The translations under genes and the position numbers were made by a program. Shown piece by piece: positions 10,467 to 41,912 of a stretch of DNA of 64,000 nt; positions within the stretch are counted from its first letter, which is position 1, and each line of letters starts with the position of its first letter. The notes beneath the pieces are model-generated. The model was not told where the DNA came from. It was given only the letters and a program-made list of their open reading frames with translations, and did no database searches. This DNA is from Candidatus Kerfeldbacteria bacterium (lineage in GTDB: Bacteria; Patescibacteriota; Patescibacteriia; SBBC01; CAIJZX01), in contig JACPSJ010000001.1 in the NCBI GenBank assembly GCA_016193315.1, forward strand, positions 791,478 to 855,477. The letters run 5' to 3'.

Positions 10467-10483
10467 TCGTAGATACGCTAGCC

Positions 10484-11689
10484 TCAGGTGAAGCTGCCGA
10501 TGAATTGGTAGATCGGCAAGAGAATCGACAACGCCACGATTCCCACCACCGCCCCCATGAACAGCAGCAAGGCCGGCTCCAGAAAGGTGGTCAAGTCCTT
10601 GATGGTCGTGTCGATCTCGGCATCATAGAATTCGGAAAAGGATCGGAGAACTTCCTCGGTGGTGCCCGACTTCTCGCCGGCCGCCACCAGGCTGGAAAAG
10701 AAGCGCGGGAACAGCTTCGGGTGCTCTTTGAGCGTTTGGGAGAGCGGCACGCCGTTGGCCACCCGTTCCGCCGCTTGGTCCAAGACCCGTTGATAAGTCT
10801 CGTTGCCCACGGCTTGACCGGCGAGCTGCACCGCCTCGGTGATTGACACCCCACTCCTGAGCATGCTGCCGAGGGAACGAGAGAATCTCACCAGGGCTAG
10901 TTTCTTCATAAGTTCGCGGGCCACTGGCAAGATCGAGATCAAGCGGATCAGAAACCTGCGCCCGGGACGGCGAAACTGGATGACCAACCACACTATGACC
11001 GCCAGCCCAAGCACATCCAGCAGCGGGTATTTGGTCACGGCCGTGCTGATAACCAACAACACCTTGGTCATGGCTGGCAACTCAACATTGGCCTGATAGA
11101 AAGCCTTGGTGATTCGCGGCAGGACAAAGGTCAGCAGCAACACCACCACCCCCAGCGTGCCCGCCAGCAGCAGCACCGGATACGAGAGCGCGGACTTGAT
11201 CCGATGGTTGATGAGGTGGATCTTCTCCGAGTACTGCGCTAGCTCGTCGAGCGTTTGCGCCAGCTGCCCCGACGCTTCCGCCGCTCTGAGCATCCCCACG
11301 TAGATTGGCGGGAAATAACGATGGTATCTCTGGAACGTGGTCGACAGCGGCAGGCCATTCTGAACGTTGGTCTTGGCATCCAGCAGTATGGCTCGCGCTG
11401 TCTGCTTGGTCGCGTCGGCGACCAAGATATCCAGCGATTCGGTCAGATTGACCCCGGCCTGGACAGTGGCGCCGAGGTTCCGCATCATCACGATGCGATC
11501 AATCGCGGTGAAACGCTCAAACGGGCGGACCCAAAAAGCAGGCCGCGACCCGCCAACTTCCTCGATAACCATCGGCGTCAAGTGGTGGCTCAACAGATAG
11601 CCAATCGCCTCCTGGCGATTAGCCGCGGCCAGTACTCCTTTGATCGCCTGGCCAGCCTGGTTGACTGCTTCGTAGGAGTAGGTGGCCAT
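10484..11689 (-). CDS. pilC: Type IV pilus platform protein PilC (GspF family)
   Basis: 401 aa with two T2SS-F repeats and three TM regions; positioned directly downstream of pilB. Confidence 0.85.
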   Translation of the reverse strand: MATYSYEAVNQAGQAIKGVLAAANRQEAIGYLLSHHLTPMVIEEVGGSRPAFWVRPFERFTAIDRIVMMRNLGATVQAGVNLTESLDILVADATKQTARAILLDAKTNVQNGLPLSTTFQRYHRYFPPIYVGMLRAAEASGQLAQTLDELAQYSEKIHLINHRIKSALSYPVLLLAGTLGVVVLLLTFVLPRITKAFYQANVELPAMTKVLLVISTAVTKYPLLDVLGLAVIVWLVIQFRRPGRRFLIRLISILPVARELMKKLALVRFSRSLGSMLRSGVSITEAVQLAGQAVGNETYQRVLDQAAERVANGVPLSQTLKEHPKLFPRFFSSLVAAGEKSGTTEEVLRSFSEFYDAEIDTTIKDLTTFLEPALLLFMGAVVGIVALSILLPIYQFIGSFT

Positions 11690-11691
11690 GG

Positions 11692-13404
11692 CTATTCTCG
11701 AACCACCCGGACTACCTCATCAAGTGTGGTCACGCCGCGCTCGATCTTCCGCAGCCCATCCTCGAACATAGTAACCATGCCATCCTGCATCGCCCGCTGT
11801 CTAATCTCGCTCGCCGGCGCTCGGCGGATGATCAGTTGGCGAATCGCTTCGGACACTGGCAGGACTTCGAAAATCCCGATCTGTCCTTGATAGCCGGAAT
11901 GACCGCAGACTGAACAACCAGTGCCGGCGAACAACTGGCTGGGTGGTCGAATTGCCACCGGACGACCAAACATTGACAGCTGGGCCGCCAACAAACGTTC
12001 AACTTCCGGCGTTCGTGGCAAGGTGGTGATGCACGAGCGGCAGATCTTCCGCACCAGACGTTGGGCGATGACGAGATTGACCGTTGACGAAACCAGAAAG
12101 GGCTGGGCGCTCATGTCGAGGAGCCGCGGGAATGTTGAGGGCGCATCATTGGTGTGAAGCGTAGTCAAAACCAGGTGCCCGGTCAGGGCGGCGTGAACTG
12201 AGATACCCACGGTCTCGTTATCGCGAATCTCCCCGACCATGAGGATGTCGGGGTTCTGGCGCAGGAGCGACCGCAGGCCGGTGGCAAAAGTAATGCCAGC
12301 TTTGGGGTTGACCTGGGTCTGGTTGACCCGCGCGATCTCGTACTCGATCGGATCTTCAATCGTTGTAATGTTGACCGTCGGGGTATTGAGAATATGCAGG
12401 ATGGCATAGAGCGTAGTTGTTTTCCCGGCGCCGGTCGGTCCAGTGGCCAGGATCATGCCGTGGGGCTTTTGGATTTCTTGCCGGATAGCGGCGGCTTGAT
12501 CGGGCGAGAGTCCCAGGTCCTCCAAGGTGAATGGCCGGTTCGCTGGTTTCAACAGTCGCATCTCGATTTTCTCGCCATGCAAGACCGGTAACACGCTGAC
12601 GCGAATGTCGATTTGCCCACTCCCCAAGTCAACACGAAAGCGGCCGTCTTGGGGTGTCCGGTGTTCATCGATCTGGAGGTTGGCCAAGACCTTCACCCGG
12701 GCGACCAGCGTCGGGGCGATGATTTTGTTCAGGCTAAGAATTTCATGGAGCACGCCGTCAATGCGGTAGCGCACCAGCACCTCCTGGTTCAGCGGTTCAA
12801 AGTGGATATCAGAAGCGTTGAGCACGACTGCGTTTTCGATGATGCTGTCGACGATACTGACAATCGGTACGGCCGCCGCCAGCTTTGATAGGTTGGCTTC
12901 GCCTGAGCTGGGGAGGAAGGTCTTGACTTGTTGTTGGATGACGTCATGAAACTGCTGCCCCATCGACCGCTGGTACTGGGCCAAGCCAAACCGAAGACTG
13001 CTCGGCTTGACGAGATACGGTTCCACCCAAGCATTCAGCTTGACCCGCAAGAACTCGATGGTTTCATAATCAAGCGGATCGACCATCGCCACCTTGACTA
13101 CGTGCCGTGACTGATCGGAGGAGAATGCCACCACCCCGCGGGCTTTGGCCAAAGCCTCAGGAACCAGTTCGAGCGTGGCCGCGGGGATAGTAATCGTCTT
13201 AAGATCAACAACTGGCACACCAAAATACGGCTCCAAAAGCTCAACTAGATACTCCTCAGTTATCGCCCCGCGCCCGATCAAGACCTCAGTGATCGGTTGG
13301 CCCAGCCGCTCAGACTCGGCTGCAGCCTGCTGAAACGTCTGGCGGTCAACCACCCCAGGGGCGGCGGTCAAGATGTTTTCCAGTGCCGGTCTTGAGATGT
13401 GCAC
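11692..13404 (-). CDS. pilB: Type IV pilus assembly ATPase PilB (GspE family)
   Basis: Walker A LATGPTGAGKTTTL, His box, and a C-terminal tetracysteine motif (CRSC...CSVCGHSGYQG); N-terminal GSPII_E-like domain. Confidence 0.9.
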   Translation of the reverse strand: MHISRPALENILTAAPGVVDRQTFQQAAAESERLGQPITEVLIGRGAITEEYLVELLEPYFGVPVVDLKTITIPAATLELVPEALAKARGVVAFSSDQSRHVVKVAMVDPLDYETIEFLRVKLNAWVEPYLVKPSSLRFGLAQYQRSMGQQFHDVIQQQVKTFLPSSGEANLSKLAAAVPIVSIVDSIIENAVVLNASDIHFEPLNQEVLVRYRIDGVLHEILSLNKIIAPTLVARVKVLANLQIDEHRTPQDGRFRVDLGSGQIDIRVSVLPVLHGEKIEMRLLKPANRPFTLEDLGLSPDQAAAIRQEIQKPHGMILATGPTGAGKTTTLYAILHILNTPTVNITTIEDPIEYEIARVNQTQVNPKAGITFATGLRSLLRQNPDILMVGEIRDNETVGISVHAALTGHLVLTTLHTNDAPSTFPRLLDMSAQPFLVSSTVNLVIAQRLVRKICRSCITTLPRTPEVERLLAAQLSMFGRPVAIRPPSQLFAGTGCSVCGHSGYQGQIGIFEVLPVSEAIRQLIIRRAPASEIRQRAMQDGMVTMFEDGLRKIERGVTTLDEVVRVVRE

Positions 13405-13577
13405 AACACCAGACTACCAAAAATGGCCCTAATTGTCAGGGTTTCACCAGCATCAGGTCGGTCTGGCCTGTCCGCCCAACCACTGTTTGCTTACCCTGAC
13501 CGGCGCCGGAGCGGGCGCGATCAATGGAGCCGGGTGCAGCGCGATCCCGAAGAGAATACTGTTCTTGCGGCCAAGCC

Positions 13578-14157
13578 CTAGACTCGAAGCGTGCCCAGAT
13601 CAAGCATCGTTACTAGTGGATCTCCGAGAAACATGGTTATTAGGGCGGACAGCAACAACGGCTCAGCGAGCGACGTGTAGGGCTGTTTCATGACCACCAG
13701 CCTGAAGACCGAGAACATCACCACCAGCAGTAATCCCAGCGGAATGAACACTACCACCTTCGGCCAGCCAACAGCCACCGCGGTTAGCAGTCCCAACTCG
13801 AGCTCGCCGGGATGGAAGAGCCTCCGGCGATATCGATGTATCAATCTCAAGACCGCGTAGAAACCGGCGGCTACCAGGATGCTGATTAGCGGGGCTCAGT
13901 GGAGCTTCAAGCAAGTACCTGGTAAACTCGCCGTTCGACCACACATAGTATTGGGCGGCAGTCAGGACCGCCGCAAAAATGACCCGCACCGCCATCGCCG
14001 CCAGACTGAGTCGACCGAGTATGGTGGGCAATGACAGCTGCCGGCGGGCGTAGAACAAGAACACCGCGGCCGCCAACAAGACTCCTAGCACGAGTTGAAG
14101 CAACCACGCTAAATCTGGAAGGCGAGCCCCGGCCGGAATCACTTCAGATAACGACAC
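13578..14157 (-). pseudogene. Polytopic membrane protein interrupted by a frameshift at a C4/G4 run (13891..13894); possibly a degenerate prepilin-peptidase-like protein
   Basis: Two hydrophobic ORFs in different frames (13663..14157 and 13578..13850). Deleting one C in AGCCCCGCT joins them into a 193-aa protein with 5-6 TM helices. The frame-B sequence beyond the C-run turns Arg-rich and non-protein-like. The peptidase assignment rests on position (between the major pilin and pilB) and a weak GELEL (GDVKL-like) segment only. Confidence 0.35.
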
Positions 14158-14225
14158 CGATGAATTGTATCAAGAACCACTCTGACTGTCAGCGCTCTGC
14201 CGAATGCGCCCAGTCCAACAACCGA

Positions 14226-14253
14226 AAGCAGCTTCCGCGATCAGAAGCTGCTT
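14226..14253 (-). terminator. Stem-loop (AAGCAGCTTC-N8-GAAGCTGCTT) downstream of the major pilin gene
   Basis: Perfect 10-bp inverted repeat 24 nt past the pilin stop codon. On the minus-strand RNA it is followed by the moderately U-rich ucgguuguugg. Confidence 0.35.
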
Positions 14254-14276
14254 TGACTGCTGACAATTCCCAGCGA

Positions 14277-15104
14277 CTAGTAATTGGTGTCGTTGCCCAT
14301 CAGGCGGACACTGGTCCCAACCTCATACAGCGTGCCCTGATCACCGCCGTCCTTAGCTGCTTTGTCATCCGCGCCATTCGGCCCAAACTCGGCACTCTCC
14401 AACCGCGCATTGAGCTCAAAGACGTTCTGTGGTTCGAGTGGGGGGGTGTCTGTAACTTTCTGACAGGCGTAACGATAGACATAGTCCGTATTCGCCGGTG
14501 CGGTCACGTTGGCCACTGTATTGGTCGGATCAACAGGTAGACTCGAGAGCGGTGAACCGCCAGTGATAGTGGTCAAGTCAACCGGAATCCAGCCGCTCCC
14601 ATCAACCTTGGCGTTGTTAGCCAACGCCACGGCGGTGCATGAATCTCCGGCCGCACCCGTCCCGCCAAAGGAGGATCCGCCCTCCACATCATCCCCTTCA
14701 GGGACGTTTGCTGTGCAGTCGGGCTCGGTCCCGGTGTGCGGCAGACTGTAGTAGATTACGGCACTGGTAACATCCCCCGGTAAAGTACTATCGTAACCGA
14801 GACAATTGGCTGTCGGTCCGAGCGACGGGTCGGTGACAGTGGTAGCGTAGATCGCCAGCACTGTCTTCAGCGTGGTCAAATCAGAAATTCGCTGCGAATC
14901 TCTCGATTTCTTCAGGGTTTCGGAAGGGTTCAGCACCAGGATCAGAACCACGGCTAGGACCGCCATTACCGCCACCACCAGCAGCAATTCAAGCAAGGTG
15001 AAACCGCCGCGATTGCGGCTGGTCGGGCTAACTTCGACCGTCGGTGGGGTAAGCGACGATCTCCTAAATGTTGATATCCGCCCCAGCAATTGTCTCAAAA
15101 CCAT
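14277..15104 (-). CDS. Type IV major pilin candidate (PilA-like), large (275 aa)
   Basis: Canonical N-terminus RNRGG|FTLLELLLVVAVMAVLAVV with Glu+5. It has its own sigma70-like promoter and a downstream hairpin, i.e. a monocistronic layout typical of major pilins. Long leader (~34 aa). Confidence 0.7.
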   Translation of the reverse strand: MVLRQLLGRISTFRRSSLTPPTVEVSPTSRNRGGFTLLELLLVVAVMAVLAVVLILVLNPSETLKKSRDSQRISDLTTLKTVLAIYATTVTDPSLGPTANCLGYDSTLPGDVTSAVIYYSLPHTGTEPDCTANVPEGDDVEGGSSFGGTGAAGDSCTAVALANNAKVDGSGWIPVDLTTITGGSPLSSLPVDPTNTVANVTAPANTDYVYRYACQKVTDTPPLEPQNVFELNARLESAEFGPNGADDKAAKDGGDQGTLYEVGTSVRLMGNDTNY

Positions 15105-29494: not shown

Positions 29495-30382
29495 TTAGGA
29501 TGTTAATAAGTCGCTGAGACTGTGGAATTCGTAGCCCTTAGCCTTGAGATCCCGAATGATCAGACCAACTGCCTGGGGGGTGACATCGAACCCGGCGCTG
29601 AGCATAATGATGGCCCCCGGCTTCGCCTTATCGACTACCCGTTTCCGTACCTGGTCCGCGGTCATCCCCTCTTGCCAGTCGAAGGCATCAACCGTCCAAA
29701 GAATAGTGCAGTAGCCTTGGCTTTTGGCCGTGGCGACTACCGACTCATTACTGTCACCGTAGGGCGGCCGGAGGAACGGTTTTGAGGATCGGCCGGTCGC
29801 GGCGCTAATGGCTTGGTCGGCCTTGGCTAACTGGTCCACGACCTCGCCCTCGGTCAGCGACGTCAAGCGGGGGTTATCGTAGGTTCGATTGTAGATACCG
29901 AAACCGGCGCGGGCCAGGTTGGCCACAAAGTCCTGGTGTTGCTCAGCCACCCGGCCGCTGACGAAGAAAGTGCCGGCCGTATTCTGTTGAGTTAAGAGGT
30001 CAGCCACCTCGAGTGCCTGGTCGTTCGTCGCCACCAGGTTGAACGTCAGGCTGACCGCTGATGTGGTACCGGATTGTGAGATCGGACCGGCGCATCGATC
30101 AACGGAAAATGTGGCCACGTCAGGTGGGTTGATCGGGCCCGAGGCCGCGTTGGTGTTGGCCGCGGCATTCGTATTGCTGTTCGTATTCGTGTTGCCATTG
30201 GCCCGGTCTGAAAGTAGCGAGACTTCGTTGTCGTTGTTGGCATTTGGGGACGGACTACCGCTGAAGAGGGCCCGACCAAGAACGATAATCATCAAGGCGC
30301 CGATGGTCCATACTCCAATCCGACGCCAGCGAGAAGCGCTGGAGACTCCACGGCGCGGTTGATAGCGAAGGTAGTCAGCCAT
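29495..30382 (-). CDS. Polysaccharide deacetylase (NodB homology/CE4), membrane-anchored
   Basis: NodB motifs TFFVSG, RPPYGDS and LWTVDAFDW; a low-complexity Asn/Thr linker after the TM anchor. Confidence 0.8.
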   Translation of the reverse strand: MADYLRYQPRRGVSSASRWRRIGVWTIGALMIIVLGRALFSGSPSPNANNDNEVSLLSDRANGNTNTNSNTNAAANTNAASGPINPPDVATFSVDRCAGPISQSGTTSAVSLTFNLVATNDQALEVADLLTQQNTAGTFFVSGRVAEQHQDFVANLARAGFGIYNRTYDNPRLTSLTEGEVVDQLAKADQAISAATGRSSKPFLRPPYGDSNESVVATAKSQGYCTILWTVDAFDWQEGMTADQVRKRVVDKAKPGAIIMLSAGFDVTPQAVGLIIRDLKAKGYEFHSLSDLLTS

Positions 30383-30971
30383 TGATCAACGCCGAGTTGG
30401 CGGCCCGTTGACGTTGTCCTAAGTATAGCACAACCGTGTGGTGGAGACCAAAGAAGAGACCGCTGTAGAATAGATCGCCGAGGAGCGTGTAGCGGAAGAA
30501 CGGCCAGCCAGCGACATAGGCCGCGACCAAGCCCGGCCAGGTGTGCGGGTAGAGTGTCCCGAACCACCACACCGCCGCGTTCGTCACCAAGAAGAAAAAC
30601 GCCGCCCCAGCCAACGCCGCCCCAGCCAGGCGCCGCCACCCTCTCGGCCCCAGGCTCAGGCTTTCTGGCCGGTGCCGAACCCAGAACCCCAGGGCGCAGC
30701 TGACGAGAAAGCTGCCGTAGACCGAGATCATGATCGGCCACGAGTAGAAACCAATCGCCATATCGCTGATAAACATCAACCCGAGCGGGACAATAACCGC
30801 CAGACGCCGCGGGAGGTAAGCGCTGCTGAACATCGCTAAGGCGCTGACCGGCGCGAAATTCGGTGGCAAATCAATCAGCCCATAATGACGGAGCACTCGC
30901 AGGCTGGCCCCACCCAGGATCAGGAAGAGGACAAACCACCATCGCCAACGGTTGGCCTGCCGCGTGGTCAT
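30375..30971 (-). CDS. Small 6-TM integral membrane protein; candidate substrate-capture (BtuM/ECF-S-like) component of a cobalamin uptake module
   Basis: 198 aa, hydrophobic throughout. It lies in the operon downstream of the candidate B12 riboswitch and the DUF4430 genes. The function is by context only. Confidence 0.45.
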   Translation of the reverse strand: MTTRQANRWRWWFVLFLILGGASLRVLRHYGLIDLPPNFAPVSALAMFSSAYLPRRLAVIVPLGLMFISDMAIGFYSWPIMISVYGSFLVSCALGFWVRHRPESLSLGPRGWRRLAGAALAGAAFFFLVTNAAVWWFGTLYPHTWPGLVAAYVAGWPFFRYTLLGDLFYSGLFFGLHHTVVLYLGQRQRAANSALING

Positions 30972-31597
30972 GGTTTTGGACCAAGCACCCAGGAGACGAG
31001 CATCGTGTCGCCAGCCGTTAATTCCGCGGCGGCTAGATCAATAACCTCCTGCCCATTGAGTCTGATGTCCCAGTGCCCGCGGCCGGCATTCGGGAGACCA
31101 AGAAACTGATCCAGGTATGTGCTGTCCCCCCGACTGCGGTATGACATTTCTTGGCGTCGTTCCGCTGCGACCTGAGCTAGTGCTTCGAGGAGATGACCGG
31201 TCTTCGTCACCACCGTCCGGCGCTCGACAAGCCCAGGGGTCACGACCTCAACGCTGACCCCCAGCGGTTGCGTAGTGTGCGCGCCGAGCACGGATCCTGA
31301 CCAGCGATGATTTCTGACACCGGGACGCACCAAGGGCCCCAAGAAGGCGGTACTCATCCCCACCGCCAGCAGCGCCGACCAAGCCCAAACGCGCCAATCC
31401 CGTCCGGCCGTGACCGAACGACGCCCCTCACCGACGGTAACGACTGCCGCCAGCCTTGCTCGTGCCGGCGCCACCGCGGCCCGATGGTGGACCTGGTGAG
31501 CGACAACGGCCGTCGAAACGCGCGCTCGAGTCGGTCTAGAACTTCTCAAGTTTCCACTCGATCGTGTCGCGGCTCTTCGTTTGGTACTCTTTGGCAC
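30968..31597 (-). CDS. DUF4430-like (transcobalamin-like B12-binding family) protein
   Basis: C-terminal GHWDIRLNGQEVIDLAAAELTAGDTMLVSW fits the DUF4430 YW..VNG...GA....L..GD.I.W signature. The Arg-rich N-terminus of the track ORF overlaps the upstream gene by 60 nt, so the true start is probably internal, near 31441, just before the WAWSALLAVGMSTAFLG anchor. Confidence 0.45.
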   Translation of the reverse strand: MPKSTKRRAATRSSGNLRSSRPTRARVSTAVVAHQVHHRAAVAPARARLAAVVTVGEGRRSVTAGRDWRVWAWSALLAVGMSTAFLGPLVRPGVRNHRWSGSVLGAHTTQPLGVSVEVVTPGLVERRTVVTKTGHLLEALAQVAAERRQEMSYRSRGDSTYLDQFLGLPNAGRGHWDIRLNGQEVIDLAAAELTAGDTMLVSWVLGPKP

Positions 31598-31913
31598 CGA
31601 CGTCGGCTAGTTTGCCATTGACGTAAAAGGCCCAGTATTCACGATCGCCGGGCGGCCGGCTGTCAATGGCGTTGACGAATCCCTGGTCCGAAACATCGAC
31701 CTGGTGTTCGGCTTGGAGCAGTTCGAGGGCGTTCTTACCATCCTCCCCGGCGTAGCGGACCCCCTGGGCCTGGTTGGCCTTGGCATTCGCGGCGTTGACA
31801 TTGCTGTCACCTTGCGAGTTAGTGCTGACCTTGACAGTTTGGGTGAAGGAACAGCCGGCGCCGAGCAAGAAAATGCTCAGAACGACGGATGGGATGATTT
31901 TCTTCGTGTTCAC
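31536..31913 (-). CDS. DUF4430 family secreted/lipoprotein (B12-binding family)
   Basis: Signal peptide with Cys (LLGAGCS); strong DUF4430 signature EYWAFYVNGKLADVGAKEYQTKSRDTIEWK. GTG start at 31913. Confidence 0.65.
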   Translation of the reverse strand: MNTKKIIPSVVLSIFLLGAGCSFTQTVKVSTNSQGDSNVNAANAKANQAQGVRYAGEDGKNALELLQAEHQVDVSDQGFVNAIDSRPPGDREYWAFYVNGKLADVGAKEYQTKSRDTIEWKLEKF

Positions 31914-31939
31914 GGCATGATGAACAATGAATAAAGTTC

Positions 31940-32100
31940 CCGCCGTCGTAGAACTGCAGGGATCAATGAGATCCGTGCCTTTCCACGAAGGACTTGTCTT
32001 TAGGGCCGATCGACATTCGACCCAGGTGTCGGACTATACCGCGGCGGGACCGTTCCGGGATTCAACCGGATTACCTTGTGGATTGATTGTACGTGCTTCT
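31940..32100 (-). promoter_or_regulatory. Candidate cobalamin (AdoCbl) riboswitch in the 5' leader of the DUF4430 operon
   Basis: Minus-strand sequence ..AAGGTAAtccGGTTGAATCCcggAACGGTCCCGCCGCGGTATAG..(50 nt)..GGAAAGGC..GATCCCTGC.. matches the conserved cobalamin-riboswitch blocks AGGGAA / GGTGnAAnTCC / ACnGnCCCGCnACnGTnA / GGGAAGGC / B12-box GAgACCtGCC. It parallels the E. coli btuB leader (AATCCAGTGCGAATCTGGAGCTGACGCGCAGCGGTAAGG). It ends ~40 nt before the GTG start at 31913. Confidence 0.5.
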
Positions 32101-32181
32101 CATCAACTGGTCAATGCGATCCAGCAATAAACGGTCCAATAAAGAAGAATCGGGCTATGCCGAGCGTCAGGAATGCAAGCG

Positions 32182-32391: not shown

Positions 32392-34434
32392 TTATTCTTC
32401 GATTGTTTGCTTACCCGGGGCGGCGGAACGGTAGGTCAACCTAAGATTCGCGGATGATGTCAGCGCCGGGTCGAATGTATTCTGTGCGGTAAAGCTGTAC
32501 GCAGCCGAACCTTCCGGCGACCCTTCCTTCGGCGTCAGTGTATACCAGACCGCATCCGTCTGCCCGGCGGCGATCGATAACTGTGTGGCATTCGATCGGA
32601 CCGTCCAACCAGCGGTCAATGCCGGGTCCGGTTGAACGACGACGCTTGAAGCCGGGCAGGCGCCTGTATCATGATTGGTAACCAGCATTTGCACTGAAAC
32701 CGACGTCTGGCCGGTGCTCCGATCCAGCCCGGCGCTAGCCGGCTGGAAAATCGCGGTTGGTGCTTGCTCGACACACGGAGTTCCGCTGAATTGAATCTCA
32801 ATATCCGTGCCTTCGGGCGAAACCGCCACCGTCCGAAGCGTAGCCAGGCCGAATGTCCGAGATTGCCCGGCCGGTAGCGGTGCGTTATACAAATCGGAAT
32901 AGTCGTTCGGTCCGATGCTCGGTTGCCCGTTCCACAGAAGGTTAGGAGTAAAATCCAGCAGGTACGACGAGTCATCCGGCGGGGCGAACTGATTCCGAAC
33001 TTCGTGGTGGATGAGCGGTCCGGTCGCCCCGCCGTAGTTCCGCAAAAAGCCAAAAGCATCATTGTCGAATCCAATCGGCTGGCGAAATTCGAGATACAGA
33101 TATTCGTGCGTGTTAGCTCCCACCGGAACGCGGAGAAGTTTGACGCCGGACGAGGCCGTTTCAAGGGGTTCGATGTGATACGTACCGCTTTGCGTGATCG
33201 TCTGAACCCGGTCGTTCTGAAGCCACCCCAGCCGCCGCTTGTGCGGGCCGGTGTGGTGGAAGTACCCGGCGAACGGGCTGTACGGCTCGAATTTCTTCAA
33301 ACATCCAAACGGCGCATAGATTTCGGTGTGGCATTCCCACGCCCAGGCATGATCCAGTCCAAGATTATGGCTTAGCTCGTGGATCATCGTGTAATTCCCG
33401 GTTTGCATCGCTTGCGTCGTCACGACGTACGCAACGGTCAGAGATACGTCCCCATCTTGCGTCTGGAACGGTTGCGGCACGAATGATGAGTTGCCAGTGT
33501 AACCGCATGACAAGGTGTGTGGAGCCAAAACAAGGACATCCGTGTACGCGCCGTAGTCGATTGATGCATCGGCCGCGGCAATCGCCGCTAGCTCGACTGT
33601 GTGTTCGTTACACGTCGCGTTGAGATTGAGCGGAAACCAGCCGAACACATCTCCAGACAGCTCAAGACGGGCATAGGAGCTTTCACCGAACTGGGAAGCG
33701 ACGGACGCCGGGCCGGTCAGGACGAATGCATTGACTTGAGCCGGAGTCCATGATTGCTCGAGCATATCCGAGAAACGACCCATAATCACCGCCAGCTTTC
33801 TGGACGTCGCGGCTTGCGGCTGGATCGTGACCGACTGCGTTTCGTCGATACTGACCGCCAAAAAGCGATCGTCAACCAGAAATCCTTCGACGGTCACGCT
33901 TTCGGCTGGCTTGATCGCTTGCAACACCGCATCATCCCCGACCACCCGGACGTTTTTATTATCGGCGACGATATATTGCCGGCGTCCACTCGTGTGGCGC
34001 GCGGTATCATCCCAATGGCGGAATGCCCAGGTTCCGGTCATTGATGTCCGCTGGTCTATCCGGGTGCCCAGACTTTGCGCCAGTTTTTGTTCTTGCGCGG
34101 CCGTCAACAATCCCCGGAGCGCATCCTGCGGTTTAGTCCTGACCAGCGATCGGAACACGGCTCGCCGGCGTTCAGCCGCCTGCTGCAATTGTTTTTCTGC
34201 TTCGGCCCGGCTGGCACCGGAACTCACATTCCATTGAGTATACGCGGCCAGTAATGCTACGTTTTGTTGTCGCAATCCCTCCTCAGAATTACGAAGGGTC
34301 GGCGAAGTACGAAACTGCAACCAGGCGACGTAGCCGGCCGCAGCCGAACCGAAAATCCCCAGTGTGATCAGTAAGATCGGCACAACGAGACGAAGTTTAA
34401 TTTTTTCACGAATCGTTGGCACGGGCTGGAACAT
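32392..34434 (-). CDS. Membrane-anchored zinc metalloprotease, metzincin-type (HExxHxxGxxH)
   Basis: Motif MIHELSHNLGLDHAW, an N-terminal TM anchor, 680 aa, and a C-terminal beta-rich domain. Confidence 0.7.
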   Translation of the reverse strand: MFQPVPTIREKIKLRLVVPILLITLGIFGSAAAGYVAWLQFRTSPTLRNSEEGLRQQNVALLAAYTQWNVSSGASRAEAEKQLQQAAERRRAVFRSLVRTKPQDALRGLLTAAQEQKLAQSLGTRIDQRTSMTGTWAFRHWDDTARHTSGRRQYIVADNKNVRVVGDDAVLQAIKPAESVTVEGFLVDDRFLAVSIDETQSVTIQPQAATSRKLAVIMGRFSDMLEQSWTPAQVNAFVLTGPASVASQFGESSYARLELSGDVFGWFPLNLNATCNEHTVELAAIAAADASIDYGAYTDVLVLAPHTLSCGYTGNSSFVPQPFQTQDGDVSLTVAYVVTTQAMQTGNYTMIHELSHNLGLDHAWAWECHTEIYAPFGCLKKFEPYSPFAGYFHHTGPHKRRLGWLQNDRVQTITQSGTYHIEPLETASSGVKLLRVPVGANTHEYLYLEFRQPIGFDNDAFGFLRNYGGATGPLIHHEVRNQFAPPDDSSYLLDFTPNLLWNGQPSIGPNDYSDLYNAPLPAGQSRTFGLATLRTVAVSPEGTDIEIQFSGTPCVEQAPTAIFQPASAGLDRSTGQTSVSVQMLVTNHDTGACPASSVVVQPDPALTAGWTVRSNATQLSIAAGQTDAVWYTLTPKEGSPEGSAAYSFTAQNTFDPALTSSANLRLTYRSAAPGKQTIEE

Positions 34435-34440
34435 GCGGCA

Positions 34441-35019
34441 TTAGTAGTCTAATCCCCTCGTCGCAATAATTCCCTTGTAATACGGATGCTTGATCATTTT
34501 CATCTCCGTCACCAAGTCAGCATATTTCAACATCCATTTGATTTTCTGGTGGCCGGTCCAAATGAGGTGAACCATTTTCGCTTTCTTGTCCTGAGCTCGG
34601 TCTTTCAAGAACTTTTCCACCGGTTGTCGATCCAGGATTTGTTCTTCCACTGCCGACCCGAGTTCGTCAGCCACAACGAGTTGGTATTGTCCGGAAAAAA
34701 CTTTTTTCCGCAGCACAGCTAAGGCTTTCAACGCGGCGGCCTGATGCTGCTCTTCCGGTTTGCGGTCATTAAGAATCTTGTAGAACCCTTCGCCGAGCAC
34801 CAGAACTTCAACCCCCAGTTTCCGCAGACTCTGCCGTTCCCCGCTCGGCCATGGCGGTGATTTCATGAATTGGATGAAACTCACCCGCCAGCCGTAGCCG
34901 GCGGCACGCACTGCTACGCCGACTGCGGCCGTTGTCTTCCCTTTTCCATCACCAATGTAAGCGTGCGTTAGACCCCTGTCGGCCGGCCGGAGTTTCTTTG
35001 GGGCTTTATGTACGGGCAT
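34441..35019 (-). CDS. cobO: Cob(I)yrinic acid a,c-diamide/cob(I)alamin adenosyltransferase (CobO/BtuR family)
   Basis: P-loop GDGKGKTTAAVGVAVRAAGYGWRV and FIQFMK motifs. The track ORF (34441..35163) has a 48-codon non-conserved leader, so the true start is MPVHKAPKK at 35019. Confidence 0.8.
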   Translation of the reverse strand: MPVHKAPKKLRPADRGLTHAYIGDGKGKTTAAVGVAVRAAGYGWRVSFIQFMKSPPWPSGERQSLRKLGVEVLVLGEGFYKILNDRKPEEQHQAAALKALAVLRKKVFSGQYQLVVADELGSAVEEQILDRQPVEKFLKDRAQDKKAKMVHLIWTGHQKIKWMLKYADLVTEMKMIKHPYYKGIIATRGLDY

Positions 35020-35500
35020 GATGCACAAATAAACGAATGGCCGCCCGCCCATGCGGCGTGGTTTTCGCGTCCGGCATCCGTTGGATATCATCAACCGATA
35101 ACCAGCTTCCGCCGGCCGAATGAACAGTGTTGATTCGCGGTATCGTGTCACCCTGGCCAACATAGAATGTCACCAGCTCGTTCTCAGTCTCGTCTTCAAT
35201 GTGTTCTTCGCCAAGGAATTCTAGTTTCACATCCAGTCCTAAAAAATCTTTTAGCGCCTCGGTCGCCGCCGGCTCGGGACTTTGCCCGGCGAACACATGT
35301 TGTCCAACCGAGCTCGACCACCTGCCGGGAGAGAGTTCTTTGTCGCCCGCGCGTTGGCGTAAGAAAACTCGGCCGGCTTGATCGAAAATCAAAATATGCA
35401 CGGCGCGGTGCAAGAGATGCTGGGCATGAACCTGGCTTCCCGACCGGGTGCGTGGAATCGCTTCCCCGATGACCACCAGCGGTTTCTCAAAATCGGACAT
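35006..35500 (-). CDS. NUDIX hydrolase
   Basis: 164 aa with a Nudix-box-like segment GQHVFAGQSPEPAATEALKDFLG; overlaps cobO by 14 nt. Confidence 0.6.
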   Translation of the reverse strand: MSDFEKPLVVIGEAIPRTRSGSQVHAQHLLHRAVHILIFDQAGRVFLRQRAGDKELSPGRWSSSVGQHVFAGQSPEPAATEALKDFLGLDVKLEFLGEEHIEDETENELVTFYVGQGDTIPRINTVHSAGGSWLSVDDIQRMPDAKTTPHGRAAIRLFVHHART

Positions 35501-35994: not shown

Positions 35995-38900
35995 CTAGCT
36001 ACAACCAGTCGTGGTGCCACACTCCATACAGATCTGGCACGAACCGTTGCGTTTCATCTTCATCGAGCCGCAGCTGGCGCAGGTGTCGCCGGTGTAGCCC
36101 TGGGCTTTGGCCGTCAGCGCTTGGTTGGCCGCCTGGCTTGGTTCGATCGGGATTGAGGCCGCTACGACGGTCGGTGCAACTGCCGTTTCTGTCTTGGCCG
36201 TCTCGGTGGTCAGCGCGGTGGGGCTGGCTAGCTCCTGGTTCTGCCCGCTCCCTGGCTTGATCTGAACAAGATCTTCGCGATTGAGGTACTCATAACCGAG
36301 CATCCGGAAGACGAAGTCGAGAATCGAGGTAGCCATTTTCACGTTGGGGTGGCCGATGACCGGGCCAGCCGGCTCGAAACGGGTGAAGGTGAAGGTATCG
36401 ACGAACTCTTCGAGCGGTACGCCGCGCTGGAGACTCTTCGAAATGGCAATGGCGAAGCAATTGATAAGCGAACGATAGGCCGCGCCTTCTTTGTACATGT
36501 CGATGAAGATTTCGCCCAGCCGGCCATCGTGATACTCGCCGGTGCGCAAGAAGACTTTGTGGCCGCCGACGATCGCTTCTTGCGTCCAGCCCACCCGCTT
36601 GGCCGGCAGTTTTTCCTTGGCCCCGCGGACGGCGACGATGTCGTTCATCATTTGCGGTGTCGGCTCGGCGACATTATCGTCGGCGGCCCCCAGGGCGGCA
36701 ATTTCATCGTCAGCGTTGACGCTGTTGAGTGGTTGGGATAGCTTTGAGCCGTCGCGGTAGAGGGCGATGGCTTTGAGCATGAATTTCCAAGCGTCCCCGT
36801 GGACTTTCTTGACATCTTCAAGCGTTGCCTCGTTCGGCATGTTGATCGTTTTCGAAATGGCGCCGGACAGGAACGGCTGAACAGCCGCCATCATTTTGAT
36901 GTGGGCCGGGTAGGGAATGTAGCGTTTGCCTTTGACGCCGCACTTGTTGGCGCAATCGAAAATCGGGTAATGTTCTTCCTTTAGGTGCGGTGCGCCTTCG
37001 ATGGTCATCGTTCCGACCACGTACTCGTTGGCGGCCTCAATCTCCTCCTGGCTGAACCCTAGCGCCTCGAGCACTTGAAAAGCGGGCTTGCCCGCCGCCG
37101 CACCCAACCCAATCCGCTCCATCGTCTCGGGACCGAGGGTGGTCGGGTTGATGACGAAGCGGATGTCAAAGGTTCCCTCCAGCGCCAGTTCAATCTTGGC
37201 CAGATCGTCGCCGGTAAAGCCTTTGGTCTTCAGCGCGGCGTGGTTGATGTGTGGCGCATCGGCCAGCGTCCCATGGCCTTGGCAGTAATCCTCGATGTCC
37301 TTGATTTGTTCATCCGAGTAGCCGAGCCGCTTCAATGACTTACTGACCGAGGCGTTGACGATCTTGAAGTATCCACCGCCGGCCAGTTTTTTGAACTTGA
37401 CAATGGCAAAATCCGGTTCGACGCCCGTCGTATCACAATCCATCACCAGCCCGATCGTCCCGGTGGGCGCAATCAGCGTGGCTTGGGCGTTGCGGAAGCC
37501 ATGCTCCTTCCCCCATTGCAGGGCTTTGTCCCACGCTTCGCGGGCAGCCTTGATCAGCGGTTCCGGTGCTTGTTTCGGATCCAGCCCCAGGGGCGTGATG
37601 GTCAAGCCTTCATATTCGCCGGGCGGAGCATTATAGGCTGCGCGACGATGATTCCGGATGACCCGCAGCATCTGCTCACGATTACGTTCATAGGCTGGAA
37701 ATGGACCGAGCAGACTGGCCAACTCGGCACTCGTGGCGTAGCTTTCGCCGGACATGATGGCCGTCAACGCCCCGGCAATCGCCAGGGCCGGCGGCGAATC
37801 GTATGGCACGCCCATGGTCATCAGCACCGTCCCCAGGTTGGCGTACCCGAGTCCGAGCGTGCGGTACAGGTACGACAAGCGGGCAATCTCTCTGCTTGGG
37901 AACTGAGCCATCAGCACGGAAATTTCCAAGACGATCGTCCATAGCCGCGTGGCGTGCTTGAAGGCCTCGAGCGAGAACGTCCCACTGTCGGCATTGTAGA
38001 AGTGCGCCAGGTTGATGGACGCTAGATTGCAGGCCGTATCGTCGAGGAACATATACTCGGAACACGGATTCGAGGCGGTAATCCGCCCGTCAGCCGGACA
38101 GGTGTGCCACTCGTTGACAGTCGTGTCGAACTGGAGACCAGGATCGGCGGACATCCAGGCCGCCTGGGCGATGTCATCCCACAGTCGCCGAGCCTTGTAG
38201 GTGGCGGCTGGCTGGCCGTTCGTTCGCCACCGCGTCTGCCAATCTTCGTTCCGCTCAACGGCCCGCATGAATTCGTTCGGGACCCGAATCGAATTATTGG
38301 AATTCTGGCCGGAGACGGTCAAATACGCTTCGCCTTCGAAGTGGGTGTCGAAGACTGGGAAATCGATCGACGATTGGCCCTGGGCGACCAGCGCCAAGCA
38401 ACGCAAGATGTAATTCAGCGGCACCCGACGCTGGAGGGCGTGGCGAACGGCTGTTTTCAGGGCCGCGTTGGTGTGGTAATCGGTGGTATTCTGTTCAGTC
38501 GCCACTCGCATGATGCCATTCAAGGCCTGGGCGTTGATCATGCTGCCGGTCACCAAGTCGGCCACCTTCTGCTCTTCCTTTGCTTTCCACCAAATGAAGT
38601 CCGTTACATCCGGATGATCGATATTAACCACCACCATTTTGGCCGCCCGGCGCGTGGTCCCGCCGGACTGAATGGCGCCGGCCGAACGGTCAAAAATCTT
38701 CAAGAACGACATCAGGCCTGAGCTATACCCCCCGCCGGACAGCTTTTCATGACGGCTGCGGAGCGAGGAAAAATTACTGCCCGTGCCGGAGCCATACTTG
38801 AACAGCCGCGCTTCCCGCGTCACCAAATCAAAAATGCCTCCTTCGTTGACCAAATCGTCTTCCAGTCGCTGAATGAAGCAGGCGTGCGGTTGCGGATGGG

Positions 38901-39519
38901 TATAGGCGTCCGCGGATCGTTTCAACACCGCCGTCCCCGGGTCGACGTAGTAATGGCCTTGCGGTGTACCGGTAATTCCGTAGGCCCAATTGAGTCCGGT
39001 GTTAAACCACTGCGGTGAATTCGGCGCGCCCATCTGTCGGATAAGCATGTGTTCCATCTCGTCCTGAAAGGCCTGCGCGTCCTCCGGCGAAAAAAAATAA
39101 CCGTGCTGCTCCCCCCACCAGCGCCAGGCCCCGGCCATCCGTCGGACCACCTCCTTGACGCTTCGCTCCGAGCCGAGGATGGGCTGACCGTCCGGGCCCA
39201 GCCGGGGCTGGCCATGTCGATCTCGCTGCGGAACCCCGGCTTTGCGGAAATACTTTTGGGCCACGATGTCCGTCGCCACCTGACTCCAGCCGACCGGCAC
39301 CTCGACGTCACGGATTTCTTTGATCACCGAGCCGTCCGGATTCTTGATCACCGAATGCCGACGCTCGTACTGCACCTGTTCGAGCGGATCCTGGCCGGCC
39401 ACAGTGAACAGGCGCTCGATTTTCAGCCCGGCCCCTCGGCGTGGCGGGGGCGGAGCCACCCGTTGGCCGGGCGCCGTTGAAATTGGCGTACGCTCGCTGG
39501 TGAGTGTCTTGGTGGTCAT
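35995..39519 (-). CDS. nrdJ: Class II (adenosylcobalamin-dependent) ribonucleotide reductase
   Basis: 1174-aa single-chain RNR with class II features, a C-terminal CxxC...CxxC Zn-ribbon tail ([22 protein letters not shown]) and an N-terminal ATP-cone-like region. Confidence 0.9.
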
Positions 39520-39533: not shown

Positions 39534-40034
39534 TTACGACTGTTTTTGTGGCTTCGGGCGGGCCGGAGATGGACGTCGTCGACGCTTGCGGAGCAGCCGG
39601 TTGAGCTCCTGGCGGAAGGTCTCGACGTCTTGAAATTGACGGTAAACGGAAGCGAACCGAATGTAGGCGATCTGGTCAATCCGCTGCAGCCGTTTGATCA
39701 CGATGGCGCCGATATCTTGCGAGGTGATCTCGGCCCGGCCCCGGAGTTGAATATCGCGCTCGATTTGGCCGACCAAGCGTTTGAACGTCTGGACCGTAAT
39801 GGGCCGTTTTTCGAGCGCCTTCCGCAGACCACCCTCCAGTTTCTCGCGGCTATAAGGCTCGCGCCGACCGTCTCGCTTGACCACGGTTAGGTTGAGAATC
39901 TCCACTTCCTCGATGGTTGAGAAACGGAACCCACAGCGATCACAGACCCGCCGGCGTCGGATGGCCAGGCCCTCATCGGTTACTCGGGAATCCATGACGC
40001 TCGTGTCAGCGTGGTGGCAAGAGGGGCATTTCAT
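39534..40034 (-). CDS. nrdR: Transcriptional repressor NrdR
   Basis: N-terminal Zn ribbon [16 protein letters not shown] plus an ATP-cone; ends 14 nt upstream of nrdJ. Confidence 0.9.
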
Positions 40035-40361: not shown

Positions 40362-41912
40362 TTAGCGCCCCAGGATATTGGTCGGCCAAACCGGCTCTGG
40401 TTCAATGACCGCACCAACGCGTTCGAACAGCCAGACCCGCTCGGCGTGGTAGCGCTGCCGATACCCCCTGGAATCCCGGAGCCAAGGAATAAGTTGTTCG
40501 AGCATGATACGTTCGTTGCGCCGATGAGCGTCTGTTTTAGTGTTTGGGCCGAACTTGCGCTCCAGAATCGCCACGTATTCCACCTGTTGAAGCCCGTTGG
40601 GGACGATTTGGACGACTGGATGCTCGTTGATATGGGCGCCGAGGTTTTGGGTGATAGCAACTGCCTTGGCTTGAGACGGAATCATGGCCAGCGCTTCAGC
40701 CACCTGCGGGGCCAGCTCTTCCTTCCAGGCTACCTGTGGCCAACGTGTTTGTGGGCTCCAAGGCCAGGGACTGAATTTCCACAGACTCAGTAGACTACCA
40801 ACGAGCACCGCTGCCACCCACATCGCTCGACCCCAACGCCAACCTGACGGCCACCGCCACTCAAACCAGCGTCTGAGGACTCGCCAGCTGAACACTAGAC
40901 CGAGGAATAAAAAAGGAATGAATAGGGCGTGGTAGTGGAAGAATAGGGTCTGGGGGTTTGGACTGTCCCACCACCAATAGAGCAGCAGTTCCGGCAACAA
41001 GAGCGCCGTGATTGGCGCCAGGAGCGGCCAGACGATGCCGAGTGGGAGTAAGAGTTGCGCCACCGCCTGAAGATGGACTCGGGTGGCCAGCAGCTCCCAA
41101 GCCCGCCGGGGGTGGAAAAGCGTGTTCAGGATCGTCCCCGGACTGGATTCCGCCTCGACGTATTTCTCAAAGATGAAATGGCTGGTCTGACCTGGTCGCG
41201 AGAGTGGGATGAAGAAAAATATTTGCGACGCCGTCCACAGCCAGGGGACCACCAGCGCCCATCCGGCCCGGCCACGATTGCCCCGCCACCAGTAGAGACC
41301 GCTGCCGAGCAAACCGAGGGTAATACCAACCTGTTCTTTCGTGATCACCGCCAACGCCACCCATAGCCAAAACATCCGATCGCGGCGATGAACGACCGCG
41401 TCGGCGGCCGCCAAAAAGAACGTTATCGCTAGCGTGACCGAGTGAAAATCAAAAAGGTTGGCGAACTGTAAGGGTGGGTAGGCGAGATAGACGAGCCCCA
41501 AGAAGACACCCAGCCAGGCTGACTTGGTCAACATTTTCGTTAACCGAAAGACAATCCACGCACCCGCGGCGAGCACCAGGGTTTGAAAAACCAGCAGGTT
41601 ATCGGCGGTCCGCCCGAACCAACTCAGCGGCGCCAAGAGAACGAGCAAGTAGTCAGCGTGAATGGCGGAACGAAGCATATTCGTTCCATGGACGCCACCC
41701 GGGCCGATTTCAGGGTTGGTAAAGGTAAAACCGCGTCCGTGGCCGACATTCCAGACCGTCTGTGACATGATCCCCAGATCGTACCAGCCGGCGTTGAAAT
41801 TGTGGGCGCGGCCGAGGGAAAACCACGAGATGATGACGATGTAGAAGACGAGACCCAGCCAGAGGATAATCTCCGGCCACGGCCACCGACGCCCGGGGGC
41901 AGTGTTCATCAT
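40362..41912 (-). CDS. DUF2079-like polytopic membrane protein (putative GT-C-type glycosyl/arabinosyl-transferase-like), paralog 3 of 3
   Basis: Shares SQTVWNVGHGRGFTFT and IHADYLLVLLAPLSW motifs with the two upstream genes. The track start (42056) overlaps the upstream paralog by 148 nt; the start MMNTAPG at 41912 forms an ATGATGA overlap with the upstream stop. Confidence 0.6.
   Translation of the reverse strand: MMNTAPGRRWPWPEIILWLGLVFYIVIISWFSLGRAHNFNAGWYDLGIMSQTVWNVGHGRGFTFTNPEIGPGGVHGTNMLRSAIHADYLLVLLAPLSWFGRTADNLLVFQTLVLAAGAWIVFRLTKMLTKSAWLGVFLGLVYLAYPPLQFANLFDFHSVTLAITFFLAAADAVVHRRDRMFWLWVALAVITKEQVGITLGLLGSGLYWWRGNRGRAGWALVVPWLWTASQIFFFIPLSRPGQTSHFIFEKYVEAESSPGTILNTLFHPRRAWELLATRVHLQAVAQLLLPLGIVWPLLAPITALLLPELLLYWWWDSPNPQTLFFHYHALFIPFLFLGLVFSWRVLRRWFEWRWPSGWRWGRAMWVAAVLVGSLLSLWKFSPWPWSPQTRWPQVAWKEELAPQVAEALAMIPSQAKAVAITQNLGAHINEHPVVQIVPNGLQQVEYVAILERKFGPNTKTDAHRRNERIMLEQLIPWLRDSRGYRQRYHAERVWLFERVGAVIEPEPVWPTNILGR

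Follow-up and report, generated by a model that had tools for sequence, protein, structure and literature searches.

We analysed a 64,000-nucleotide (nt) stretch of DNA from Candidatus Kerfeldbacteria (Patescibacteria, Candidate Phyla Radiation (CPR)), hereafter the window, with a focus on a small operon and the leader that precedes it. Coordinates are window positions. The operon and its leader lie on the minus strand, which carries nearly all genes in this part of the window, and the same strand is meant below unless (+) is given. The leader is the 268-nt gap between a 58-amino-acid (aa) open reading frame (ORF) and the first gene of the operon, ORF1 (31536-31913, 125 aa), which encodes a DUF4430 protein. 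It is followed by ORF2 (30968 to about 31474, within a maximal ORF at 30968-31597), a second predicted binder with a transcobalamin beta-domain fold, by ORF3 (30375-30971, 198 aa), a DUF6580 membrane protein, and by a polysaccharide deacetylase gene (29495-30382; PF01522, E=3e-21). The start of ORF3 overlaps the stop of ORF2, and the stop of ORF3 overlaps the start of the deacetylase gene (ATGGCTGA overlap). An earlier note on this DNA had proposed that a cobalamin riboswitch controls an uptake module here; the three ORFs are indeed found where it placed them, and ORF1 carries the REYWAFYVNG...DTIEWK signature. We consider it quite likely that these genes form a vitamin B12 scavenging operon that is switched off by B12 through a reduced riboswitch in the leader.

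Homology of the leader to cobalamin riboswitches

The riboswitch proposal was built on five sequence blocks, each of which occurs once in the leader, in the predicted order, between 32077 and 31956: AAGGTAA (32077-32071), GGTTGAATCC (32067-32058), AACGGTCCCGCCGCGGTATAG (32054-32034), GGAAAGGC (31984-31977) and GATCCCTGC (31964-31956). Four of the five are unique within the window. Their reading as conserved cobalamin elements holds for the first three, which make up the classical aptamer core, and fails for the other two. We rejected GGAAAGGC as the classical P6-extension element GGGAAGGC, since it is actually the loop and 3' strand of P13, and we likewise rejected GATCCCTGC as the canonical B12-box element, since it forms the 3' side of a platform hairpin that varies among relatives.

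That the leader RNA is a homologue of cobalamin riboswitches nevertheless appears very probable. The riboswitch assignment is supported by conservation, by covariation, by a kissing loop between the loops L5 and L13 and by related leaders that are positive for the Rfam model RF00174, and not by the Rfam score of the leader itself. With permissive settings, the best Rfam match in the 401 nt searched is to RF01689, AdoCbl-II (32019-32084, 23.5 bits against a cut-off of 36.5, E=0.0036), in which P4, P5 and P6 align well and with high posterior probability and the outer helices poorly. The P1 of this alignment (32084-32079 with 32024-32019) was rejected because part of it would precede the predicted transcription start and because its 3' strand belongs to a covarying hairpin, H1.

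Leaders of the same kind precede related operons. A nhmmer search with the leader gave matches at the equivalent position in seven other genomes (L001, L011, L003, L004, L005, L078 and L010, where L-numbers are labels of comparison loci and their leaders; E from 3e-15 to 8e-3), which bears out the expectation that the leader is conserved before orthologous operons. More distant leaders of DUF4430-DUF6580 operons pass the RF00174 gathering score of 31.5 bits (L013 with 47.1, L078 with 36.2 and L068 with 33.1 bits), and one of them, L078, is at the same time a nhmmer match of the window's leader. A first covariance model was made from nine short-type leaders and used to gather 46 leaders; in genome loci anchored on DUF6580 its matches were all on the gene strand and all upstream of DUF6580. 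A later model, R3, comprises 35 related leaders, with the window excluded, and gives a single match over the 64 kb, at 31975-32082 (80.9 bits, E=5e-17). A site at 41657-41745(+), matched by the first model with 13 bits (E=0.83), has no L5 and is gone with R3, and was dismissed as noise.

Six helices are proposed for the RNA, and 92-95% of their alignment cells are paired, compared to 64-70% in column shuffles and 36-55% in slid controls. In one alignment 94.5% of the cells are paired (69.6% in shuffles) and 19 of 24 pairs show compensatory changes, and in the 47-sequence alignment 92.4% are paired, with changes on both sides in 22 of 24 pairs. P3, P4, P5 and P6, the arms of the four-way junction, each have compensatory changes, with 86-100% of cells paired. 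On these comparative grounds, the leader is a member of the cobalamin-riboswitch clan, with a P3-P4-P5-P6 junction and an L5-L13 kissing loop.

Promoter and aptamer

A sigma-70-type promoter is predicted at 32086-32114 (TTGACC at 32114-32109, a 17-nt spacer and TACAAT at 32091-32086; 10 of 12 consensus matches). Its -10 box ends 9 nt before P3, and transcription would start at about 32079, roughly 3 nt before P3. This spacing recurs in relatives: for the pattern TTGACN-16/17-TANNNT, the scored distance from the end of the -10 box to P3 is 5-9 nt in ten of the 11 closest leaders. In the remaining one, L005, it comes out at 35 nt only because an insertion in L4 misaligns P3; measured on the sequence, the distance to the true P3 is 6 nt. 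A transcript beginning at about 32079 would therefore leave no room for a P1/P2 closing helix, and none was found in the leader. Immediately after the 3' strand of P3, where the 3' strand of P1/P2 would be expected, stands hairpin H1 (32003-32023; GGGUCGA/UCGGCCC, loop AUGUCGA), which pairs locally, with changes on both sides in seven of seven pairs and 90-93% of cells paired.

The aptamer core, a four-way junction at 32024-32076, is supported by the partial RF01689 match, R3 and covariation. It is closed by P3 (32076-32074 with 32026-32024), a helix of 3 bp whose first pair is A-U, C-G or U-A among relatives, and J3/4 (UAA) connects P3 to P4 (32070-32054). P5 (32051-32043) bears the loop L5, UCCCG, at 32049-32045, and is followed by a mini-P6 (32041-32030, CGG-UAUAGU-CCG), of 3 bp, and by J6/3, the B12-box-like AGUCCGACACCU. 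The middle pair of mini-P6 (position 47-136) is G-C in 13, C-G in 12 and U-A in three sequences. At the same place a P6 extension is found in L009, L010, L013 and L085 (46-57 nt or longer) and, at 22-32 nt, in L095, L097, L098 and L084, whereas in the window's subgroup it is reduced to a 6-nt loop. With P6 cut to 3 bp, the RNA lacks the peripheral extension found in class I riboswitches.

The loop of H1 keeps GUCGA despite a freely varying stem (window, L001, L003, L004, L010, L011, L085, L095 and L096), and its GUCG is complementary to CGAC in J6/3; the two could form a tertiary contact or an alternative pairing. Between H1 and P13 runs a single-stranded linker of 11 nt, UAAAGACAAGU (31992-32002), which is nearly invariant in 20 leaders. 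A metagenome scan for the pattern of linker plus P13 returned 25 matches, 13 of them (11 distinct) with a cobalamin core 45-100 nt upstream; the other 12 have no such core and look like chance occurrences in unrelated sequence.

P13 (or hairpin H2, 31978-31991) consists of a stem, CCUU/AAGG, with compensatory changes in all four pairs, and the loop L13, CGUGGA (31987-31982), in which U31985 is bulged. L5 and L13 form a kissing loop of five loop-loop pairs, with 92.7% of cells paired against 16-63% in slid controls. The pair between L5 position 2 and L13 position 5 is C-G in 15, G-C in nine and U-A in one sequence, and the loops as a whole change together: L5 UCCCG is accompanied by CGGGAA, CGGGGA or CG-U-GGA, UGCCG by CG-A-GCA, and UUCCG by CG-A-GAA. 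GGCGGGA (31944-31938) was a first idea for L13 and was dropped because L5 covaries with the H2 loop.

Sister subgroups with a different platform are represented by L084, L088, L097, L101 and L104, which are metagenome leaders, and by L013, L068 and L078. Their P13 loop, CGGGAA, is perfectly complementary and is followed by a hairpin and U-run resembling an intrinsic terminator, with no GGCGGGA segment. Alternative pairings in these leaders, judged by eye, gave no obvious OFF logic.

Proposed expression platform and translation start

Downstream of P13, sequence reading and minimum-free-energy (MFE) folds place a platform hairpin, H3 (31956-31977; GGAUC-UCAUU-GAUCC, base GCA/UGC), whose length in relatives ranges from about 15 to about 100 nt. 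After H3 comes a putative switch, or decoy, segment, UUCUACGA-CGGCGGGAAC (31936-31953). Complementarity to L13 and flanks (UCGUGGAA) resides in its 5' half and complementarity to L5/P5 (CCCGCCG) in its 3' half, and in the MFE fold of the leader it pairs with both the L5 and the L13 zones. For a transcript that ends just past the switch, the L5 zone has 7 of 7 nt paired and the L13 zone 8 of 10, and this loop-paired fold is 17.6 kcal/mol better than one with both loops free. Similar pairing of the switch is seen in related leaders (L5 8 of 12, L13 10 of 12).

The segment has a second complement in the presumed translation-initiation region (31882-31926), which comprises a start-codon hairpin (31926-31907) that contains the GUG start (31913-31911), about 65 nt from P13. 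This complement is UCCCAUCCGUCGU (31894-31882), which spans codons 7-11 of ORF1. Folds of the platform without the aptamer bring the switch onto the window's start region, at +20..+26. L001 and L005 share with the window a target in codons 7-9 (+19..+26), and the window's helix reaches across UCCCAUCCGUCGU. Subgroup B leaders offer CCCACCAAC, at -7..-15, as the target instead, with matching differences in the flanks of the switch (ACGAC or ACGUU). A mini-ORF of five codons (31912-31929, UUG UUC AUC AUG CCG UGA), whose stop overlaps the GUG of ORF1 (GUGA), is probably there by chance, because it was not seen in relatives.

Two common modes of control were set aside. The window's leader contains no intrinsic terminator, and control by termination was rejected for it, while other subgroups do carry a hairpin with a U-run. 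Shine-Dalgarno sequestration is inapplicable because the operon has no Shine-Dalgarno sequence; such sequences are rare here, about 9 of 33 window genes having even a 4-mer match. Many starts are directly preceded by CC before ATG or GTG (AAAACC ATG, GAAACC ATG, CATGCC GTG), and CC-preceded starts that are poor in Shine-Dalgarno sequences suggest initiation independent of them.

How, then, could the ligand signal reach the start codon? We propose a decoy relay, to which we give somewhat less than an even chance. In the absence of B12, the decoy UUCUACGACGGCGGGAAC (31953-31936) would be captured by both kissing-loop partners during transcription, the start region would stay open and translation would be on. 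With B12 bound, the L5-L13 kissing loop would be locked first, before the decoy is transcribed; the free decoy would then pair with codons 7-11 (31894-31882) and enclose the GUG, and translation would be off.

The predicted binder proteins ORF1 and ORF2

The earlier note counted two DUF4430 proteins. For ORF1 this is confirmed by Pfam (PF14478, 54.2 bits against 23.8, E=2.1e-14, profile positions 3-72 of 72). In the alignment of orthologues, ORF1 has a signal peptide that ends in a conserved LLGAGC cysteine; the protein is probably a lipoprotein, and we predict that it binds B12 in the manner of CbrS.

The second assignment does not stand at the level of the Pfam hidden Markov model (HMM) and stands at the level of fold. 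ORF2 has no Pfam match even at E<=10, and its homologues, a small family of 17 clusters that are all Patescibacteria-like, carry no precomputed domain. Aligned with hhalign, the ORF2 and ORF1 families give E=0.048 and a probability of 1%, too weak to decide, with the FV..I...W..YVNG...GD motif in register. In the AlphaFold model, a membrane helix and a disordered linker precede a domain at residues 53-146, with a predicted local distance difference test (pLDDT) score of at least 92. Foldseek against the PDB found 18 matches to this domain at E<=1e-3, all of them beta domains of transcobalamin, haptocorrin or intrinsic factor, or 3U7Z; the model superposes, at E-values between 5e-6 and 6e-5, on human transcobalamin (5NO0, 5NP4), on haptocorrin (4KKI) and on 3U7Z, a DUF4430 structure. 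ORF2 would thus combine an N-terminal membrane anchor with a transcobalamin beta-domain fold, and is predicted to be a second B12 binder.

The start of ORF2 is uncertain. From GTG 31474 the protein has 168 aa, including the anchor helix, which fits its homologues (146-197 aa); the public gene call of 107 aa drops the membrane anchor, and a 129-aa variant exists as well. The 61 nt between the ORF1 stop and GTG 31474 are G+C-rich.

The membrane protein ORF3

ORF3, which had been thought to lack a known family, belongs to one: it matches Pfam PF20221, DUF6580 (149 bits against 27, E=1.8e-43, residues 7-180), and has six membrane helices. This is its sole Pfam match, with none to PF12822 or PF07155. 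Among its homologues at E<=1e-5, 264 carry PF20221, and the name given by NCBI is 'DUF6580 family putative transport protein'. Searched against the PDB sequences, the DUF6580 profile finds only 6FNP_A (E=1.3e-3, residues 10-162), and the alignment, which spans almost the entire chain, has PNxxP and S(D/N)xx(I/L)GF motifs in common. The PDB title of this chain is 'Membrane protein', and the CbrT paper gives no chain letters for 6FNP (PMC5997447). From its length and its PF12822 match, we take 6FNP_A to be CbrT of L. delbrueckii, a B12-specific S-component of the energy-coupling factor (ECF) transporters; the CbrT fragment matches PF12822 with E=1.8e-13.

The AlphaFold model of ORF3 (pLDDT 95.9) has the six-helix S-component fold. 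Its first two Foldseek matches are BtuM structures, 8C7P and 8OVV (probability 1.00; TMq 0.59/0.56, TMt 0.64/0.62), with 21-22% identity over about 197 columns, followed by RibU (5KBW, 5KC0), ThiT (3RLB, 4MUU), PanT (6ZG3, 4RFS) and 4HUQ_S. Judged by this model, ORF3 is S-component-like and folds as ECF S-components do; the solved proteins nearest to it are the two that are known to be B12-specific, CbrT by profile and BtuM by fold. Both matches support the suggestion of the earlier note that DUF4430 proteins and a small membrane protein form an uncharacterised B12 uptake module of the BtuM/ECF-S type, and we think it fairly likely that DUF6580 is a B12 transporter. In the DUF6580 alignment, 108 of 120 sequences have His29, and Asp70, Gly74, Phe126, Thr130, Asn131, Tyr141 and Gly147 are invariant.

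Two CbrT homologues of Lactobacillales, P0215 and P0217, have precomputed matches to both PF12822 (ECF_trnsprt) and PF20221 (DUF6580). This suggests that the two families overlap, and they may form one clan.

Genome context of the DUF6580 family

The context of the family was examined in 80 species-representative genomes with a DUF6580 gene. A DUF4430 gene lies upstream on the same strand in 70 of the 80 loci, and 7 of the 10 loci without one have less than 2.1 kb of upstream DNA available. With the improved RNA model, a riboswitch is found upstream on the same strand in 41 of the 80 loci and in none of them on the other strand or downstream. BtuR is nearby in 23 of the loci and NrdJ in 20. 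The polysaccharide deacetylase follows in 11 of the 80, all from the Kerfeld-like lineage; owing to this restriction we rejected it as a part of the uptake system, and because the arrangement recurs within the lineage, the deacetylase may be co-translated with the uptake genes there.

Other CPR lineages have a riboswitch, then a DUF4430 protein and a protein of 500-900 aa, then DUF6580. The large protein combines an alpha/alpha toroid like that of SQHop_cyclase/prenyltransferase with DUF4430, which is the two-domain architecture of transcobalamin. Such large secreted toroid-plus-DUF4430 proteins are encoded in L025 (1737-3977), L054 (1211-3010), L069 (1121-3844) and L013 (827-2356), and the one in L069 also matches PF01122 Cobalamin_bind ('Eukaryotic cobalamin-binding protein').

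In the window, genes related to B12 precede the operon. An NrdR-like repressor (39534-40034), named solely from a reading of its N-terminal sequence, is followed by NrdJ, a class II B12-dependent ribonucleotide reductase (35995-39519; NCBIfam NF005736, 1782 bits), by a small MamF/MmsF-like membrane protein and then a NUDIX protein (hydrolase), and by the corrinoid adenosyltransferase BtuR/CobA (34441-35163; PF02572, E=8e-50). A 680-aa M11/gametolysin-like metallopeptidase (32392-34434) and the 58-aa ORF, which encodes two helices, separate BtuR/CobA from the leader; in L004, BtuR adjoins the leader directly. Elsewhere the window holds two giant ORFs, one of 2139 aa (2911-9330) and one of 2055 aa (50153-56320), and a cluster at 9216-15104 that, judged by reading the sequence, resembles type IV pilus/pseudopilin genes, with a Walker-A ATPase (11692-13404) and several short proteins that have GFTLLE/GFSLVE-type N-termini.

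Interpretation and alternatives

Taken as a B12 scavenging operon, the locus would work as follows. The two binders would capture cobalamin outside the cell and hand it over to DUF6580, which would take it across the membrane, and BtuR would adenosylate the imported cobalamin for the NrdJ encoded upstream. The leader would stand for a P1-less, Rfam-negative subclass of cobalamin riboswitch, and the genes for a CbrS/CbrT-like uptake module built on DUF6580. A bolder and more tentative proposal, which we hold to be possible rather than likely, takes all parts jointly: DUF6580 would be a third family of S-component-like cobalamin transporters after CbrT and BtuM and, with transcobalamin-type binders, the main entry route of B12 in Patescibacteria/CPR, and the leader would have an undescribed riboswitch architecture, with no P1/P2, with a 3' hairpin stacked on P3 and with an 'anti-kissing-loop' decoy that relays the ligand signal to a start without Shine-Dalgarno sequence.

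Several results weigh against this interpretation. As regards the RNA, the Rfam covariance scan that the earlier note had counted on gave no cobalamin match at the gathering score, and at Rfam gathering thresholds the whole window yields tRNA only. The closest relatives of the leader also reach just 20-25 bits on RF00174 against the 31.5 needed; Rfam would therefore systematically miss this riboswitch subclass. The covariation counts lean towards structure because the alignments were fitted to the model, even if the proposed helices stay well separated from the slid controls, also in how many distinct pair types they show. L5 and L13 are invariant in the window's subgroup, so that the covariation of the kissing loop comes from more distant leaders. 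As regards the relay, full-length equilibrium folds of most relatives pair the switch with the start even without a ligand constraint, and the computed accessibility of the start site is nearly equal in free and bound-mimic folds, which lends it no thermodynamic support; the relay therefore needs a kinetic, co-transcriptional argument. As regards transport, the sequence link to CbrT is weak (E=1.3e-3) and the Foldseek E-values for BtuM are only 9e-3 to 1.6e-2. The cobalt ligand of BtuM is an essential cysteine, Cys80, in loop 3 (PMC6072759), and no conserved counterpart was found in the DUF6580 alignment, the best column having Cys in 23 of 120 sequences. Finally, no ECF energising module or ATP-binding cassette ATPase was found in the 64-kb window (no ORF with both Walker A and LSGG).

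These last points are what an alternative role of DUF6580 would draw on. Rather than a transporter, it could serve the DUF4430 binders as a dock or receptor in the membrane, or it could carry another corrinoid or a precursor such as cobinamide, with the real B12 carrier elsewhere. The cysteine ligand of BtuM is absent, no energising module is nearby and CbrT, too, takes cobinamide (PMC5997447). We nonetheless find this unlikely, given the S-component fold with its B12-specific nearest relatives, and given that no other polytopic membrane protein turns up consistently in the riboswitch-DUF4430 operons and that DUF6580 holds the position of CbrT in the Lactobacillus cluster.

A second alternative concerns the pairing of L5. 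Its partner in the B12-bound state could be the downstream GGCGGGA, in a long-range pseudoknot, instead of the H2 loop, and B12 would then repress by burying the region 5' of a U-rich ribosome landing site. GGCGGGA offers 7-8 bp of complementarity to UCCCGCC(G), against 5 bp and a bulge for the H2 loop, and the MFE fold of the leader pairs it with L5. Yet it is the H2 loop with which L5 covaries (UCCCG-CG(N)GGA, UGCCG-CGAGCA, UUCCG-CGAGAA), and the GGCGGGA segment exists only in the Kerfeld-type subgroup. Moreover, the corresponding segment of subgroup B has its complement in CCCACCAAC, immediately 5' of the AUG, which under this model would turn B12 into an inducer there. We thus regard this pseudoknot as quite unlikely and keep L13 as the partner of L5.

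Could the leader be a decayed relic, which no longer binds B12 and, having lost P1/P2 and the P6 extension, serves as a structured but constitutive 5' untranslated region? A score below the Rfam gathering threshold, a closing helix of only 3 bp and the absence of the P6 extension present in L009, L010, L013 and L085 would all fit. However, 49 of 110 columns are invariant in the nine short-type leaders, including every core junction nucleotide as well as L5 and L13, while the DUF6580 proteins encoded next to them are only about 50-60% identical. The helices keep pairing through compensatory changes, and the short form recurs in no fewer than nine different genomes or metagenome contigs. A P6 extension is likewise missing from the known class II cobalamin riboswitches. 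In our view, a relic is therefore very unlikely. Lastly, that the operon serves cell-wall modification and not B12 uptake is scarcely credible: the deacetylase gene (29495-30382) starts inside the stop region of DUF6580 and recurs in close relatives, but it accompanies 11 of 80 loci, all Kerfeld-like, compared to 70 of 80 for DUF4430.

If the B12 scavenging operon is real, it bears on how very small cells feed a B12-dependent enzyme. Genomes of CPR/Patescibacteria are tiny, and that of this groundwater bacterium carries a B12-dependent ribonucleotide reductase; in the literature searched, we found no description of how CPR/Patescibacteria cells acquire B12, nor anything relevant on DUF6580, on CPR/Patescibacteria cobalamin riboswitches or on BtuM homologues with a riboswitch. 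The operon and the 70 of 80 related loci give the widespread DUF6580 family and its transcobalamin-like partners a concrete, testable role. Because a subclass of cobalamin riboswitches lies below the Rfam thresholds, B12 regulons in these phyla are under-annotated. The aptamer itself is compact, at 108 nt including P13 and with a closing helix of just 3 bp, which would make it a useful minimal model of how the kissing loop works.

Comparison with known systems

Compared with the Rfam families RF00174 and RF01689 (clan CL00101), the leader shares the GGUAA of J3/4, a P4 loop of the GGUU/UGAAUCC type, the P5 loop UCCCG, the GUA at the start of P6, a B12-box-like J6/3, the P3-P6 four-way junction, the L5-L13 kissing loop and a position upstream of B12-related genes. 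RF01689, AdoCbl-II, lacks the peripheral P6 extension, as does the window RNA. The leader differs from both families in having no P1/P2, a local hairpin H1 3' of P3 and an 11-nt linker to P13. Its P13 stands about 65 nt from the start codon instead of containing the ribosome site, a platform segment is complementary to both kissing loops, and its scores are below both gathering cut-offs.

The likeness of the binders to transcobalamin, intrinsic factor and haptocorrin lies in the beta domain, recognised in ORF1 by the DUF4430 HMM and in ORF2 by the model. They differ in consisting of the beta domain only, with no alpha/alpha toroid, and in being membrane-tethered.

The nearest described system is the nrdJ-cbrS-cbrT-pduO cluster of Lactobacillales. 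In L. delbrueckii, ECF-CbrT transports cobalamin and cobinamide (PMC5997447; Santos et al. 2018; PDB 6FNP), and in L. rhamnosus a DUF4430 protein adjoins rtpR (PMC9963975). In L. helveticus we found a 136-aa DUF4430 protein encoded in the position of cbrS, between nrdJ and the orthologue of CbrT, with a PduO-type adenosyltransferase following; no cobalamin riboswitch was detectable in that cluster. Both systems bring together genes for a B12-dependent ribonucleotide reductase and a corrinoid adenosyltransferase, and in both a small extracytoplasmic DUF4430 protein is encoded directly upstream of a six-helix protein of the S-component type, of about 180-200 aa. In contrast to the Lactobacillales cluster, the membrane protein of the window belongs to PF20221 and not to PF12822, two binders are encoded where the cluster has one, the adenosyltransferase is of the BtuR/CobA and not the PduO type, and the uptake genes form a separate, riboswitch-controlled unit.

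The other comparison is with BtuM of Thiobacillus denitrificans, a solitary S-component-like B12 transporter and decyanase (PMC6072759; Rempel et al. 2018; 8C7P, 8OVV). BtuM is the best structural match of the DUF6580 model, and both are small six-helix proteins with no ECF module encoded adjacent. At the level of sequence the DUF6580 profile has no match to BtuM in the PDB, and in place of the Cys80 ligand DUF6580 has a near-invariant His29 and the invariant Asp70, Thr130, Asn131 and Tyr141. The partners differ as well: in proteobacteria BtuM goes with the outer-membrane protein BtuB, whereas DUF6580 goes with the DUF4430 binders.

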